NCBI GenBank assembly: GCA_034669905.1
Contig: JAXMOL010000019.1
Location: 71,158 to 135,157, forward strand
Reading direction: 5' to 3'
Origin: Candidatus Hydrogenedentota bacterium
GTDB lineage: Bacteria > Hydrogenedentota > Hydrogenedentia > Hydrogenedentales > JAEUWI01
Length of the DNA: 64,000 bases
A model generated the notes under the pieces. It had not been told where the DNA came from and did not search any database. It was given only the letters and a program-made list of their open reading frames with translations. This document shows, piece by piece, positions 47,511 through 54,116 of this stretch; within the stretch, counting starts at the first letter, position 1, and each line of letters starts with the position of its first letter. Both the position numbers and the translations under genes were made by a program.

Positions 47511-49115
47511 CTATTCCTGGAAGGGCAACTTGGCCAGGGTAATATCCAGGTTCTTTTCCATGAAATAGTTCATTACCCAGGTGCTTTCAAAAAGCAACAC
47601 GGGACGCTCGTGGCCGTCGTAGGCAAGACGAACCCCGGGAGGCAAGGGCTTACCCACGATCTCTACACTTGGTGCGACCCATCGGGTTTCGGTCCAGGGC
47701 GCATGCTGGAGGCGGGTCTCCGCACCATACTCACTCTCGAGACGGTACTGGACGATTTCGAACTGGAGCGGACCGGCCGCACCAAGCAGGGGCACGTTAC
47801 GCACGGCATCGGGCAAACGGTATTGCTGCATGACACCTTCCTGCAACAACTGCTCGAGCCCGGTGCGAAAGCGCTTTGACTGCACGGGGTGTACATTTTC
47901 GATATAGGTAAAGCACTCCGGCGCGAAGAAGGGAATCTCGTCGAAGTCCACACCGTTGGCTTCGGTCAGCGTATCCCCGATAGCGAAGAGGTTATTGCCC
48001 ACGATACCCACCACGTCACCCGCGTAGGCCTCGTCCACCGTCTCGCGGTCGGAACCAAAAATTTTACTCGCATTTCCCAGGCGCACCTTGCGCCCGGTGC
48101 GTGCGTGGATCACGTTCATGTTGCGCTCAAACTTGCCGGACACAATGCGGATGAAGGCGATGCGATCCCGGTGTTTGGGGTCCATGTTGGCCTGGATCTT
48201 AAACACGAATCCGGAGAAGGCGTTGCTGGCGGGAGTCACCTCATTTCCCGTCGTCGTTTTGCGGGGTCCCGGCGGCGCGGAGTATTTGAGGAAGCCGTCC
48301 AGCAAGAGCTGAACCCCAAAATTATTCAAGGCACTGCCAAAGTAGACCGGCGTGGTCTTGGCAGCGAGCACATCGGCCGGGTCAAACTCCGTACCGGCCC
48401 CTTCGAGCATCTCTACTTCGTCACACACGTTGGCATAAAGGGTAGGATCCAACTGCTCCCGGATAAAGTCATCGTCGAGTCCGCCCGTCTTCACGGGCGC
48501 CCGGTGGGCACCGCCGGTGGTGCGTTCGAAGATATGCGCCATTTTAGTCTGGCGATCCCACACGCCACGAAAATCGGGACCATTGCCCAGGGGCCAGTTC
48601 ACGGCGTAGGGCGCAATACCCAGTTGTTGTTCCAATTCGTCCAGGAGCTCAAAGGGGTCACGGGTCGGCCGGTCCACTTTGTTGATGAAGGTAAAAATGG
48701 GCACACCCCGGTGACGGCACACTTCAAAGAGTTTCAGCGTCTGGGCTTCGATACCCTTACCGGCATCAATCACCATAATGGCCGCATCCACCGCCGTCAG
48801 CACGCGGTAGGTGTCTTCCGAGAAATCCTGGTGACCGGGTGTATCCAACAAGTTGACGCGATAGCCCTCGTAATCAAATTGGAGCACGGTGGAGCTGATG
48901 GAAATACCACGCTTCTGTTCCAGCTCCAGCCAATCAGACGTGGAGGCCCGCTGATTCCGTCGGGCCGTCACGGAACCCGCGAGGTGCACCGCACCACCAT
49001 AGAGCAAAAACTTCTCCGTGATCGTCGTCTTGCCCGCATCGGGGTGGGAAACGATGGCGAAGGTCCGTCGCCGGGTAACTTCATTTTTCAGGGTACTCGA
49101 TGTGGCCGTTTGCAT
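47511..49115 (-). CDS. prfC: Peptide chain release factor 3
   Basis: RRRTFAIVSHPDAGKTT, DTPGHQDFSEDTYR, FKIQANMDPKHRDR. Confidence 0.97.
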   Translation of the reverse strand: MQTATSSTLKNEVTRRRTFAIVSHPDAGKTTITEKFLLYGGAVHLAGSVTARRNQRASTSDWLELEQKRGISISSTVLQFDYEGYRVNLLDTPGHQDFSEDTYRVLTAVDAAIMVIDAGKGIEAQTLKLFEVCRHRGVPIFTFINKVDRPTRDPFELLDELEQQLGIAPYAVNWPLGNGPDFRGVWDRQTKMAHIFERTTGGAHRAPVKTGGLDDDFIREQLDPTLYANVCDEVEMLEGAGTEFDPADVLAAKTTPVYFGSALNNFGVQLLLDGFLKYSAPPGPRKTTTGNEVTPASNAFSGFVFKIQANMDPKHRDRIAFIRIVSGKFERNMNVIHARTGRKVRLGNASKIFGSDRETVDEAYAGDVVGIVGNNLFAIGDTLTEANGVDFDEIPFFAPECFTYIENVHPVQSKRFRTGLEQLLQEGVMQQYRLPDAVRNVPLLGAAGPLQFEIVQYRLESEYGAETRLQHAPWTETRWVAPSVEIVGKPLPPGVRLAYDGHERPVLLFESTWVMNYFMEKNLDITLAKLPFQE

Positions 49116-49441
49116 GGGGGCTCCGAAAATCACGGGATTGATCTGATAAATACGGACAGTAAGACCGTCCAACTGGGCGTTCGATGTGCACGGATGGAGC
49201 TGCACAGTCCCCGGCACACCACGGACACAGCCGGGGCGGTAGAAGGGGTGTGGAGGGGCATCGCGCAGTCGGAAGTGTACGTTGCGCACCGGAAAAAATG
49301 CAAGTTCCGGGAGACATCACCCCCCTGTATCACCGGGCCGCCCGCTCGGAAATGTATTGCAATCGAGGCGATGGGTTCTATACTATCCCGGGAGTATGTG
49401 ATGCAGGGCGCATCACCTCACTATTCGGGCAACGACTTCTC

Positions 49442-49891
49442 GTGAACTTCCTGAGCACTCCCCAAGAACGCGACCGTGCGACATCACTCCGGACCTCCCG
49501 GTGGTGTACGTCTGTGGCGTTGGGGCTGGTGCTCTTCTACATCCTCGCTTCCGTCCGAGCCCTCATCCCGGGATTGTGCGCCACCCAGCTGGCTATGGAC
49601 AACCAGTGTCCCATCGAGCGGGGTGCCCCCCAGCTCATTGGCAACACCATCAGTTGCTGTACGAGTCCTGCGGCCCGGACAATGCCGGAAGACGGTGAGA
49701 AACGCCCCATTACGCCGGCGGAATCCCACTGCGCCTTTTGTAATCTGATTATTGGACTGACGGATCCGCCGGAACCGCTCATCCTTCCTGTTCCCGCTTC
49801 GCCCCAGTACGCGGAGCGCATCCCCCTCACGGTCCAGCGCGCCCAGGAAATCCCCTGGGGCGTGGCACCCAATCGTGGGCCACCCGCCTGA
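49442..49891 (+). CDS. DUF2946/CruR-like leader protein with CxxC and C-terminal RGPP motif (start uncertain)
   Basis: Hydrophobic N-terminal segment, HCAFC, Pro-rich linker, ends APNRGPPA. Confidence 0.75.
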
Positions 49892-50036
49892 TACTCCCCT
49901 ATCCGAATCTGTTTATCGACTGCCCGAAGTGTATCTGGACGTAATTCCGTTATCGCTGTGTTGGCGCACGTCTCAACACAGATGCACTTTCCTCGGAGAA
50001 TGCGGACCCCTGTCCGCACCACAAGGAGTATCACCT

Positions 50037-50981
50037 ATGACCCGCAAGGGCTTTACCTTAATCGAATTACTGGTTGTCATCGCCATCATCGGCATCCTCG
50101 CTGCCATCCTGCTGCCGGCCCTGGCCCGCGCCCGGGAAGCCGCACGGCGCGCCAGTTGCCAGAATAATCTCAAACAATTGGGCCTCATGCTCAAAATGTA
50201 CGCCAATGAAAGTCCGGGCGAGCTCTATCCCCGTATGGGTGTACAGGATTGCAACGACGACCTGCTGATGTGGAACGCCATGTTTGACGCCCGTCAGGTC
50301 TACCCCGAATATCTCAACGACTGGGACACCCTGGTCTGCCCGAGCAACGCCGCCGCCAGCACGGCCCTGGCGCTCTGGGACGAAGGCAATACCAACCACA
50401 TGATTCACGTGGACTCTCCCCTGTCGAACAATGGCGTGGTGGATCCCTGTGAAGTAGTGACCCATCCCTATTACTACAACGGCTTCGCCATGAGTCAGAC
50501 CATGTTTACCTCCGACGACCTGGAGCACAACATGTCCCACTTCGCCGAAGCCGTGGGCATCTTTGGCGATGAACTGATGGCCGCCTTTATGGCCGATGGT
50601 TTTGAGGGTGCCGAGAACTATGTGGATCAGGACTGGGAGTTCTTTTTCCACGGACACTATGGGGCTATCGGCTCCCAGACTTCCGCCCCCCGCCTTCGGG
50701 AAGGGATTGAACGCTTTTTTATCACGGATATCAACAACGCGGCGGGCACGGCCCAGGCCCAGTCGGATATCGTGCTTATGAGCGACACGGTGGCCCCCCA
50801 CCCCAAGCACCTGAACCACGTACCTGGTGGGGCCAACGTCCTCTTTATGGATGGGCACGTGACCTTCATCAAGTGGGCCGGCGGCACCGGGCTGACCAAC
50901 CCCTTCCCCATGAATGAGGCGGGCTTTAACCTCCACCTCGGCACCATGGGCATGATGGGCAGCGGCATGGGCCACCCATAA
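50037..50981 (+). CDS. Prepilin-type N-terminal cleavage/methylation protein (DUF1559, H-X9-DG type)
   Basis: [59 protein letters not shown]. Confidence 0.93.
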
Positions 50982-51284: not shown

Positions 51285-54116
51285 ATGAATAGCTTTCGCT
51301 GTATTGCGCTCGTCCTGACCTTACTCGCCGCCCCCCTGGCCCTCGCCACCGATCTCACGCCGGAACGCCTCCGCTGTGAATACCGGGAGAATCCCCTGGG
51401 CATCGACATCACGGCGCCGCGCCTCAGCTGGATCGTCACCTCAGAAACCCGCGGACAGCGCCAGACCGCCTACCGCATCCAGGTGGCTTCCGATGCCGCA
51501 CTCCTCGCCGAAGGCAAGGCCGATTGGTGGGACAGTGGCAAGGTGGAGAGCGACGAAACGGTCAACATCCCCTATGCGGGCGATCCCCTCCCCTCGGGCG
51601 CCCAATGTTTCTGGCGCGTTCGCACATGGGATATGGCGGGCGAGCCGAGTGACTGGAGTGAAACGGCGTTGTGGTCCATGGGGCTCCTCGAGAAGACCGA
51701 CTGGACCGCCGAGTGGATTAGCTTTAAAGACGACACCCCCTTTGAAGCCACCCAACAGCAGATGCAACTGCCCCCCGCACGCTATTACCGCAAAGACTTT
51801 TCCGCAGCGAAAAAAGTGGAGCGCGCCACCCTCTATGCCACGGCCCTGGGCATCTACACCGTCAGCATCAATGGCAACGCCATCTCCGACCAGGTCTTTG
51901 CCCCCGGCTGGCCCGATTATCACAAGCGCACCTATTACAACACCTACGACGTCACCAACCTGCTCGATAGCGGCACCAACACCTGGGGCGCCGTCCTGGC
52001 CGATGGCTGGTACAGCGGCTACCTGGGCTTTGGCCTCCTCGTGGGCTATGGGCCCAATAAATCGGGCCGGGCTTTCTATGGCAAGACCCCGGCCTTCCAG
52101 GCCCAACTCGAAATCGAATATGCCGACGGCACCACCAGGACCATCATCACGGACACGACCTGGAAAACCAGCGAAGGCCCGGAACGTATCGCCGATATGC
52201 AGATGGGCGAAACCTATGACGCCCGCCTCGAAATGCCCGGTTGGGACAGCCCCGGATTCGAAGACGAAGCCTGGGAAAACGCCATCCTTGCGAAGGACAA
52301 CGGCAGCATCAAGTCCCCCTATTGGGACCAGGGCGGCTCCCGCGAAGTGGAGCTCGGCTTTCAGGAACCCCCGGTCTACCAGGCGTACTCCGGCGTGCCC
52401 ATCCGTGTAACGGAACGCATCACGCCCGAATCCATCAACGAAATTGAGCCCGGCGTCTTTATCTTCGACATGGGCCAGAATTTCTCGGGCGTGGTCGAGC
52501 TCAAGGTCAAAGGCGAGGCGGGCACCAAGGTCCAGCTACGCCACGGTGAAATGCTCCACCAGGACGGCCGCCTCATGACGGAGAACCTCCGCAAGGCCCT
52601 CGCCACCGATGTGTACATCCTCAAGGGCGACCCGGCGGGCGAAACCTGGCAGCCCCGTTTCACCTTCCACGGCTTCCAGTTTGTGGAGGTCACCGGACTC
52701 CCCACGCCCCCCACGCTGGACACCCTCACGGGCGTAGTCATCCATTCCGACACGCCCCTGACCAGTAAATTCGCCTGTTCCGACGACATGGTCAACCAGC
52801 TCTTCAGCAACATCGTGTGGACCCAGCGCTCCAACTTCCTGGAACTGCCGACGGATTGTCCCCAGCGGGACGAGCGGCTCGGCTGGACGGGCGACGCGCA
52901 GATCTACGTCCGCGCCGCGACCTACAATGCGGACACGGCCGCCTTCTACACCAAGTGGCTCGACGACCTGGTGGAAGCCCAGGAGGCCAACGGGGCTTAC
53001 CCCGAATATGCCCCTCACCCCATGAACCACGGCCGGGACGGTATCACCTGGGGCACGGGCTGGATGGACGCGGGTATCATCTGTCCCTACACGATTTACC
53101 AGGTGTACGGCGACACCCGGGTCATCAAGCGTCACTATGATTCCATGACCCGCTTCATGGATTTTCGCCGGAGCATCGCCCCCGATTTCCAGGGCGTCTA
53201 CGAGGGCAATGACTGGGGCGACTGGCTCTCCCTCAGCAAGACACCCATCGAATACATCGACGCGTGCTACTTCTACTACACGTCCTCCCTCATGGCGGAA
53301 ATGGCCGACGCCATCGGCAAGATGGACGACGCCGAAAAGTACCGCGACTGGATGAAGCAAATCCAGGGCCGCTACTATAAGAACTACGTCAACGAAGACG
53401 GCACCCTCGCCATCCGCACCCAGACCGCCTACGCCGTGGCCCTCTTCGCGGGCATCTTGCCCCTGGAAAAGCGGAAGCCCGCGGGCGACCACCTCGCCGC
53501 CCTCATCGCCGAAGAAAACCACGCCATGAGCACGGGCTTCATCGGCACCCGCCCCCTCCTGCCCGCCCTTACGGCCACCGGCCACCACGACCTCGCCACC
53601 CGGCTCCTGCAAAACCGCAAGTACCCCTCCTGGGGCTTTGAGGTGGTCAACGGTGCCACCACCATCTGGGAACGGTGGAACAGCTACACCATCGAAGGCG
53701 GCTTCGTCGCGGGCATGAACTCCTTCAGCCACTACAGCTTTGGGGCCGTGTGCGAATGGATGTTCGGCTCCCTCGCGGGTATCGACACTGACGGACCGGG
53801 CTATAAACACATCACGCTCCGCCCCGCGCCGCCCTCCGCCGACAGCAACCCCGACTTCGCACCCATCGACTGGGTCGAAGCGGAGTATGATTCCATTCGT
53901 GGAAAGATTAAGGTGGCGTGGAAGAAGACAGCGACGGGACTGGAGTATCAGGTAACCATCCCCGCAAATACGACCGCAACCTTGGAGTTGCCGATGAGCG
54001 AAGGCGCGACGGTGACGGAGGGTGGCAAACCCTTGGCCGAAGCGGGTATCCCCACGACCGACGCCAACAAACTCACCCTCGCCGCAGGCACCTATCATTT
54101 TGTGGCAAACGAGTAA
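51285..54116 (+). CDS. Alpha-L-rhamnosidase (GH78)
   Basis: LRCEYRENPLGID, DMGQN, PTDCPQRDERLGWTGD, GATTIWERW, MNSFSHY. Confidence 0.95.
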   Translation: MNSFRCIALVLTLLAAPLALATDLTPERLRCEYRENPLGIDITAPRLSWIVTSETRGQRQTAYRIQVASDAALLAEGKADWWDSGKVESDETVNIPYAGDPLPSGAQCFWRVRTWDMAGEPSDWSETALWSMGLLEKTDWTAEWISFKDDTPFEATQQQMQLPPARYYRKDFSAAKKVERATLYATALGIYTVSINGNAISDQVFAPGWPDYHKRTYYNTYDVTNLLDSGTNTWGAVLADGWYSGYLGFGLLVGYGPNKSGRAFYGKTPAFQAQLEIEYADGTTRTIITDTTWKTSEGPERIADMQMGETYDARLEMPGWDSPGFEDEAWENAILAKDNGSIKSPYWDQGGSREVELGFQEPPVYQAYSGVPIRVTERITPESINEIEPGVFIFDMGQNFSGVVELKVKGEAGTKVQLRHGEMLHQDGRLMTENLRKALATDVYILKGDPAGETWQPRFTFHGFQFVEVTGLPTPPTLDTLTGVVIHSDTPLTSKFACSDDMVNQLFSNIVWTQRSNFLELPTDCPQRDERLGWTGDAQIYVRAATYNADTAAFYTKWLDDLVEAQEANGAYPEYAPHPMNHGRDGITWGTGWMDAGIICPYTIYQVYGDTRVIKRHYDSMTRFMDFRRSIAPDFQGVYEGNDWGDWLSLSKTPIEYIDACYFYYTSSLMAEMADAIGKMDDAEKYRDWMKQIQGRYYKNYVNEDGTLAIRTQTAYAVALFAGILPLEKRKPAGDHLAALIAEENHAMSTGFIGTRPLLPALTATGHHDLATRLLQNRKYPSWGFEVVNGATTIWERWNSYTIEGGFVAGMNSFSHYSFGAVCEWMFGSLAGIDTDGPGYKHITLRPAPPSADSNPDFAPIDWVEAEYDSIRGKIKVAWKKTATGLEYQVTIPANTTATLELPMSEGATVTEGGKPLAEAGIPTTDANKLTLAAGTYHFVANE

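Follow-up and report, generated by a model that had tools for sequence, protein, structure and literature searches.

The closest described relatives of the locus analyzed here are two leader peptides of the DUF2946 family, for which the following is drawn from parts of the published reports. In Rhodobacter capsulatus cutFOG, stalling at the DUF2946 leader CutF's proline-rich C-terminus melts a stem-loop that shields the Shine-Dalgarno (SD) sequence of cutO (PMC9973294; bioRxiv 10.1101/2025.02.05.636593), and mutation of the anti-SD makes cutO independent of cutF (PMC9973294). In Bordetella pertussis, a ribosome stalled on CruR (Bp2923) relieves Rho-dependent termination and copper releases the arrest; the hallmarks given for DUF2946 peptides are a CxxC motif, a C-terminal RAPP and a 45-residue spacing between them (PMC9426467). 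Here we describe a locus in a 64-kb stretch of DNA from a Candidatus Hydrogenedentota genome (the window, to whose full length all positions refer), in which an upstream open reading frame (ORF), by its sequence a divergent DUF2946 leader of the CruR/CutF type, CxxC and RGPP included, precedes a gene for a pilin-like protein of the DUF1559 family. In our judgement the RGPP codons rather probably arrest the ribosome on this leader, and nine nucleotides (nt) beginning at its stop codon are predicted to hide the SD of the DUF1559 gene. The mechanism is already known in kind from CutF; the lineage and the target are new.

As far as the cited parts of the CutF reports describe that system, it has several properties in common with the window: a small leader of the DUF2946 family with an N-terminal export signal, a cysteine metal motif and a proline-rich C-terminal stalling motif, an intergenic RNA that shields the SD of the next gene, stalling that is proposed to allow its opening, and action only in cis. 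However, CutF carries CxxxC and a PPP-type C-terminus, whereas the present leaders carry CxxC and R(A/G/D/S)PP at a fixed distance of 44 residues, as does CruR. Also, the target of CutF is a multicopper oxidase and its element an intergenic stem-loop, while here the target is a pilin-like DUF1559 protein, the phylum differs, and the 5' arm of the pairing is the stop codon region itself, closed over a 127-nt loop. Pairing of the downstream SD adjacent to the stall site, as in CutF, is found here in predicted folds only. With CruR, as presented in its source, the window peptide shares the CxxC, a RAPP-like motif, the spacing (45 residues there, 44 here), the position as first gene of an operon and an intergenic stretch close to 150 nt in length, but the CruR model involves no masking of the SD and the CruR target is a TonB-dependent transporter. 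By motifs and spacing, the window peptide is nearer to CruR than to CutF.

A C-terminal RAPP/RGPP core, a small exported protein and a co-oriented gene downstream are also shared with ApdA, ApdP and ApcA (PMC12992588; PMC10951233; PMC7897499). These precede sec/yidC genes, and the other targets given in the parts of the survey drawn upon are TonB receptors, YcnI, PCu(A)C and PepSY proteins. According to the same source, a RAPP-type stall puts the two proline codons in the P and A sites, RGPP causes the most robust arrest of the RAPP-like motifs in Escherichia coli and Bacillus subtilis assays, and RDPP and RSPP are partially permissive variants (PMC12992588).

An earlier note on this DNA had proposed a SecM/MifM-like switch. 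The likeness in the way of working stands, but the locus is not a member of that group, its closest relatives being the DUF2946 leaders CutF and CruR. In SecM, MifM and VemP, the downstream SD is hidden in an mRNA structure, which opens when a ribosome stalls on the preceding ORF, as proposed for the window. Their peptides are unrelated to the leader, sense the activity of Sec or YidC through pulling force and not metal, and control genes of the secretion machinery; here the next gene encodes a DUF1559 protein and not a Sec or YidC component. In drug-dependent leaders such as ErmCL, a stall on the leader ORF likewise frees a masked SD. The helix, with its 5' arm within the leader or adjoining it, is disrupted sterically or by helicase action, but unlike in the window it is an antibiotic bound in the tunnel that sets off the stall, and such leaders are very short and lack a metal motif.

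The leader of the window ends in N-R-G-P-P-A (codons CGT GGG CCA CCC GCC TGA, 49874-49891), with a single residue between RGPP and the stop. Its start is uncertain, as the frame is open from 49184 and a further in-frame GTG lies at about 49513; the GTG at 49442 was picked as the most likely start by alignment to a paralogue from the same genome. DUF2946 (PF11162), with its gathering score of 23.7 bits, is the sole Pfam family matched; the whole ORF reaches 19.4 bits (E 0.0018) and its last 125 residues alone reach 22.0 bits. A conserved stretch of 11 residues follows the hydrophobic N-terminal segment, and a CC pair is also present in the leader.

Similar leaders were recovered from 17 of 61 related genomes with a single-protein query and from 36 of 135 genomes of the phylum with a profile. 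A profile of 22 leaders, run over all fetched loci, gave 51 unique ORFs, from which two with E > 1e-6 were left out, and the remaining 49 homologues were analyzed. All 49 contain the CxxC, which is also invariant in the 22-sequence alignment, and all carry R-x-P-P 1-9 residues ahead of the stop (RAPP in 24, RDPP in 15, RGPP in eight and RSPP in two). The distance from the CxxC to the arginine is 44 residues in 46 homologues and 45 in the other three. DUF2946 was matched at E<=0.01 by eight of the 22 family members and no other family was matched; one own-genome paralogue, L004, reaches 25.4 bits, above the cut-off. The next gene bears a pilin N-terminal motif (DUF1559, pilin-like) in 40 of the 49 loci, after a gap of 41-256 nt. 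The remaining nine comprise four leaders that stand first in a tandem pair ahead of such a gene, four followed by genes for other secreted proteins and one that is truncated by a contig end. In the genome of the window itself, contig C12 encodes a clear paralogue, and leaders of greater divergence are found on C60 (two) and C43 (one).

Some variation within the family is worth recording. RDPP and RSPP replace RAPP and RGPP in families f3 and f5 (e.g. L041, L018, L049, L054 and L062), and many RDPP loci read GAT CCT CC-, such that the P- and A-site codons themselves form the anti-SD CCUCC. Tandem leaders, each with its own CxxC and RxPP, occur before a single pilin-like gene in L039, L042, L052 and L055, and also in L068; these may represent two sensors in series.

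Direct reading of the sequence bears out two statements of the earlier note, namely that the segment TGATACTCC, which includes the stop codon of the leader, is the exact reverse complement of GGAGTATCA, which includes the SD of the DUF1559 gene, and that the hairpin TGCGGAC-CCCT-GTCCGCA lies between them ( Table 1 ). When the RNA from 49860 to 50060 is folded, the minimum free energy and centroid structures both contain the 9-bp helix, which encloses the hairpin; the minimum free energy is -64.9 kcal/mol (z = -2.73) and four of 200 shuffled sequences fold as well. With the context extended to 49760-50085, the bases of the SD hexamer GGAGUA have a mean unpaired probability of 0.001 in the free mRNA, and opening of the SD 9-mer costs 9.0 kcal/mol.

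Counted in the 3' direction from the first base of the codon predicted to occupy the P site, the anti-SD spans +9 to +17. In toeprinting, the 3' boundary of a ribosome is found about 15-17 nt from the first P-site base. With this boundary and the predicted P-site placement, a stalled ribosome should reach approximately 49895-49896 and cover seven or eight of the nine anti-SD bases. When the stalled footprint (49868-49895, with the first proline codon, 49880-49882, in the P site) was blocked in the fold, the unpaired probability of GGAGUA rose from its free-mRNA value to 0.50, while blocking to +12 only gave 0.22. The suggestion of the earlier note that a ribosome stalled on RGPP covers the anti-SD and frees the ribosome binding site thus finds support in the model.

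The proposed sequence of events is as follows. In the free mRNA, the helix between the two 9-nt segments would close a 127-nt intergenic structure and the SD would be inaccessible. A ribosome stalling with the proline codons (49880-49885) in the P and A sites would occupy or unwind the mRNA up to about +15/+16, that is, most of the anti-SD; the SD would then stay free until the stall ends, allowing translation of the DUF1559 gene. Persistence of the stall would probably be set by the nascent chain: being located 44 residues before the arrest motif, the CxxC should just have left the exit tunnel at arrest. Sequences, motifs, spacing, predicted pairing and its positional recurrence were computed directly, and from these we infer arrest, unmasking, the involvement of metal and the sign of the response. 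To the limits of such modelling, the mechanism put forward in the earlier note is supported.

A single 9-nt match is not decisive, since a window of this kind holds about 50 genes. Among 1500 SD-bearing ORF starts sampled from the same genome, the initiation region (-18..+3 in this count) finds a perfect complement of 9 nt or longer within the 195 nt upstream in 0.67% of cases, and within one fixed 37-nt window in 0.2%. Complementarity by chance, with no function, could draw on these background rates. However, the match falls on the arrest site, and in the own-genome paralogue the corresponding position is taken by another perfect 10-nt match, TGAGCATGAT from its stop codon pairing with ATCATGCTCA across the downstream start. 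In L022, from another genus, a 12-bp helix is formed at the same position by TGATTCTTTCCT, with 10 nt (ATTCTTTCCT) perfect and a G-U end pair, and further loci use GCACACGCCT, CAGCACCTTTTG, CTCCGATG and TCTCCTGA, among others, as masking segments. The location at the arrest site and the recurrence of the same arrangement with other sequences, in paralogues and homologues, indicate that the pairing is more than chance.

Patterns of pairing across the family point in the same direction. They were assessed in the 40 leader/pilin-like pairs (28 clusters at 55% protein identity), in wide-context folds spanning from 120 nt 5' of the Arg codon to 45 nt inside the downstream gene and with the initiation region defined as -15..+2 (18 nt). 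Partners of the initiation region peak between +6 and +24 nt from the Arg codon, at 0.14-0.23 per nt, whereas upstream of this codon they never exceed 0.05 per nt and between +36 and +150 they stay at or below 0.02; a few bins past +150 reach 0.05-0.15, on 52-102 positions versus 240. A segment amounting to 16% of the folded length holds 46% of the pairing mass, and in 20 of the 40 loci at least five of the 18 initiation-region nt are paired there. Twelve loci (10 of the 28 clusters) contain perfect complements of 7 nt or longer, but these occur in only two of 116 control windows from the same mRNAs and at a genome background of 2.1%. When the initiation region of an unrelated locus was swapped in, paired nt dropped from 5.1 to 1.7, native pairs exceeding swapped ones in 21 of 28 clusters (Wilcoxon p = 7e-5). 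None of 20000 permutations of the cluster representatives reaches the observed mean of the longest perfect complement (eight of 28 are individually at p<=0.05), and swapping partners in 20 loci with duplex energy as the measure yielded p = 0.00045. The positional peak, the swap controls and the permutation test all speak against chance, which we regard as a very improbable explanation.

Several points weigh against arrest and unmasking as the explanation of the locus. Everything presented here is sequence analysis and thermodynamic prediction and all structures are predicted ones, the downstream start codons of the homologous loci were set by us from the pilin motif, and the Pfam match of the window peptide itself falls below the gathering score. 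Half of the loci (20 of 40) have fewer than five paired initiation-region nt, including those of the close orthologues L010 (67% identity) and L012 (48%). The swapped pairs keep their 1.7 paired nt, and part of this generic signal is explained by the Pro-Pro codons, CCN CCN, which resemble the anti-SD CCUCC. As to the homologous loci, in which the earlier note had proposed to look for covariation of the two 9-mers, partners recur at +6 to +24 and outdo the swapped controls, but a fixed-register count over seven aligned loci is not significant, with 75.4% of cells paired versus 72.6% in shuffled alignments (a value equalled or passed by 137 of the 500) and a single pair showing a compensatory change, from U-A to G-C in two sequences. 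The six to seven orthologues are too few for such a count and the own-genome paralogue pairs in another register. Also, a terminating ribosome (P site 49886) covers the anti-SD of the window and brings GGAGUA to an unpaired probability of 0.43, Rho is encoded in the genome, and the intergenic region of the window is long, its 145 nt being similar to the 162 nt given for cruR-bfrG in the CutF paper (PMC9973294).

The terminating ribosome bears on plain translational coupling, according to which any ribosome that ends the leader opens the helix at the stop and RGPP has some other role. The anti-SD of the window includes the stop codon, and termination is predicted to free the SD nearly as well as the stall does (0.43 versus 0.50); since one codon separates RGPP from the stop, the stop and the masking segment coincide, and from the window alone arrest and ordinary coupling are inseparable. 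Across the family, however, the stop ranges from +15 to +39 from the Arg codon, yet masking does not move away from the RxPP codons with it, as in L055 (masking at +10, stop at +36) and L041 (masking at +5, stop at +27). In loci in which the stop lies 27-39 nt past the Arg codon, the masking segment adjoins RxPP and not the stop. The confinement of masking to +6..+24 favours a stalled over a terminating ribosome, and simple coupling would leave the invariant R-x-P-P and the 44-residue distance to the CxxC without a role, so that it appears quite unlikely to us. The location of the anti-SD in the stop region, as claimed in the earlier note, is correct for the window, but in the family as a whole the anchor is provided by the RxPP codons and not by the stop.

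Control of transcription as in CruR deserves a somewhat better, albeit still low, standing. In this scenario the ribosome stalled at RGPP keeps Rho off the intergenic RNA, and the helix between anti-SD and SD is either secondary, contributing to mRNA stability or a second layer of control, or incidental. The presence of Rho and the length of the intergenic region agree with it, as do the CxxC, the RAPP-like motif and the 44-45 residue spacing that the window peptide has in common with CruR. Also, most intergenic regions are richer in C than in G over their first 80 nt, with a C/G ratio of 1.22 for the window. The conserved intergenic motif CCCGAAGTGTAT lies 48-54 nt past the Arg codon in 11 of 13 same-genus loci, whether the stop is at +15 or at +30; such a fixed distance to the arrest codons and not to the stop would suit a pause or loading signal, and it is possible that the motif is a pause or Rho-related signal. 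Left unexplained by Rho is the partner of the SD, which in about half of the 40 loci sits under the predicted stalled ribosome with sequences specific to each locus, and intergenic regions of 41-51 nt, as found in several loci, are short for Rho loading. Masking of the SD by the anti-SD and control by Rho are not mutually exclusive; one need not preclude the other.

No copy of the CCCGAAGTGTAT motif within three mismatches was found in L013 and L029, and it occurs at +28 in L052 (twice) and in L059 of another family. The motif pairs with the last codons of the leader in some loci and with a downstream GCACTTC in others. It was rejected as a genome-wide repeat, its 193 matches comparing with 113-259 for shuffled 11-mers, that is, with no enrichment.

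The hairpin ahead of the SD does not qualify as an intrinsic terminator, given that its stem is GC-rich but no T-run follows (CACCACAAGG comes next), and a terminator scan reports nothing in the intergenic region. In many loci, hairpins of differing sequence, also without a T-run, end at a distance of 3-8 nt 5' of the SD, such as in L011, L012, L013, L041, L049, L056, L057, L060 and others (e.g. CCAGGGC/GCCCTGG and CGGGGC/GCCCCG). The GC-rich hairpin may stack on the long-range helix or set it up. A scan of 49000-50300 against Rfam at E<=1 gave no match. The DUF1559 frame is open over 49875-50036, at +1 relative to the leader; fusion of the two products by frameshifting was rejected as an explanation, as the frame offsets are distributed 16/14/10 over the 40 loci, of which only 14 have the frame open as far back as the leader.

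Additional occurrences of the locus were obtained from other sequence collections. A contig scan for more orthologues yielded 10 loci, most of them already in the set, and a metagenome scan yielded five, of which L066 and L067 carry the same 9-mers as the window. Among sequencing-run assemblies, one DNA contig is identical to the window over 49703-50041. A contig from an RNA library, belonging to a relative of about 88% identity, spans 49828-49972 with 49889-49897 unchanged, which is no proof of transcription.

Table 1. Position and properties of the sequence features at the leader/DUF1559 locus of the window.
Feature	Position	Strand	Remarks
prfC (release factor 3)	47511..49115	-	Divergent, upstream of the leader
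Promoter-like site TTGCAA-16-TATACT	49357..49384	+	Possible leader promoter; consensus scan only, 9/12 matches, weak
Leader ORF	49442..49891	+	149 residues if the start is GTG 49442; divergent DUF2946 / CruR-CutF-like peptide
Hydrophobic N-terminal segment	49502..49555	+	Likely signal or membrane anchor, by inspection and conservation in the alignment
CxxC motif (C-A-F-C)	49730..49741	+	Invariant in the family
RGPP codons CGT GGG CCA CCC	49874..49885	+	Predicted arrest site; 44 residues after the CxxC
Anti-SD segment TGATACTCC	49889..49897	+	Stop codon TGA (49889-49891) plus 6 nt
Conserved intergenic motif CCCGAAGTGTAT	49923..49934	+	Family form CCCGAAGTGT(G/A)T
GC-rich hairpin TGCGGAC-CCCT-GTCCGCA	50001..50018	+	6 nt 5' of the SD, nested in the long-range helix
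SD segment GGAGTATCA	50025..50033	+	Core GGAG 50025-50028; 3 nt ahead of ATG 50037
Pilin-like DUF1559 gene	50037..50981	+	Prepilin-type N-terminal methylation motif, H-X9-DG C-terminal domain, Met/His-rich tail

The pilin-like nature of the downstream gene, also anticipated in the earlier note, is confirmed by matches to Pfam N_methyl (34.2 bits) and SBP_bac_10/DUF1559 (43 bits), and to TIGR02532 and TIGR04294 (H-X9-DG domain), both above their cut-offs. The Met/His-rich tail of its product is encoded at about 50940-50978. At least four His or Met among the last 20 residues are found in 21 of 32 complete leader-linked DUF1559 proteins. In the genome of the window, three of 56 pilin-like ORFs reach this number, all of them linked to leaders (on contigs C19, C60 and C43), as compared to none of 52 unlinked ones.

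The other leaders of the same genome are located in varied contexts. A His-rich leader on C60 (L072 104-571) ends in LRGPPVA and heads an OEP/HlyD-CusB-like/RND efflux operon. That of C43 (L075 211-5640, minus strand) ends in QRGPPPRGE and heads a seven-gene operon with genes for a His-rich membrane protein, an ABC ATPase, an ABC-2 permease, a TPR protein, a 147-residue ORF and a terminal DUF1559 protein. On C12, the paralogous leader-controlled DUF1559 gene (L002, L071) is followed by a gene for a YHS-domain lipoprotein. We infer a link of these leaders to metal; the leader is presumably a metal sensor and, by analogy with the described systems, copper would be the most likely metal.

The neighboring prfC was rejected as a functional partner, given that it adjoins the leader in four of the 49 loci, close relatives only. 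A gene for a five-domain alpha-L-rhamnosidase (51285-54116) follows the DUF1559 gene on the same strand after about 300 nt, with no evident link to the switch.

DUF1559 proteins are very numerous in Planctomycetes-like genomes, and we know of no function assigned to the family. In a literature search DUF1559 was seldom named, and nowhere together with copper; no published link of such leaders to DUF1559 or pilin-like genes was found, though supplementary tables may list such neighbors. The main text of the RAPP/RGPP survey, as far as covered here, contains no mention of DUF1559, prepilin or pilin (PMC12992588). In the CutF paper, the main text counts 'PILIN' among the signal-peptide categories of downstream proteins and makes no mention of DUF1559, and the supplementary text none of DUF1559, prepilin or PVC phyla; its larger tables may list pilin-type neighbors (PMC9973294).

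Taken across the phylum, it is a tentative proposal, one that we hold for possible rather than probable, that metal-sensing arrest leaders keep an anti-SD in the mRNA channel of the stalled ribosome and thereby control a subclass of DUF1559 proteins with His/Met-rich tails. The locus as read here would extend the recently described principle of CutF and CruR, in which a nascent DUF2946 peptide senses metal and stalls the ribosome and the next gene is controlled thereby, to a little-studied candidate phylum, and the family shows a clear positional rule, the predicted masking sequence being located 6-24 nt past the Arg codon, under the stalled ribosome. If the proposal is true, DUF2946 leaders would regulate far beyond the classical copper genes. 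The His/Met-rich tails of the controlled copies offer a testable idea of function, and the first physiological context for DUF1559 proteins would be the capture or handling of a copper-like metal on a pseudopilus-type scaffold.

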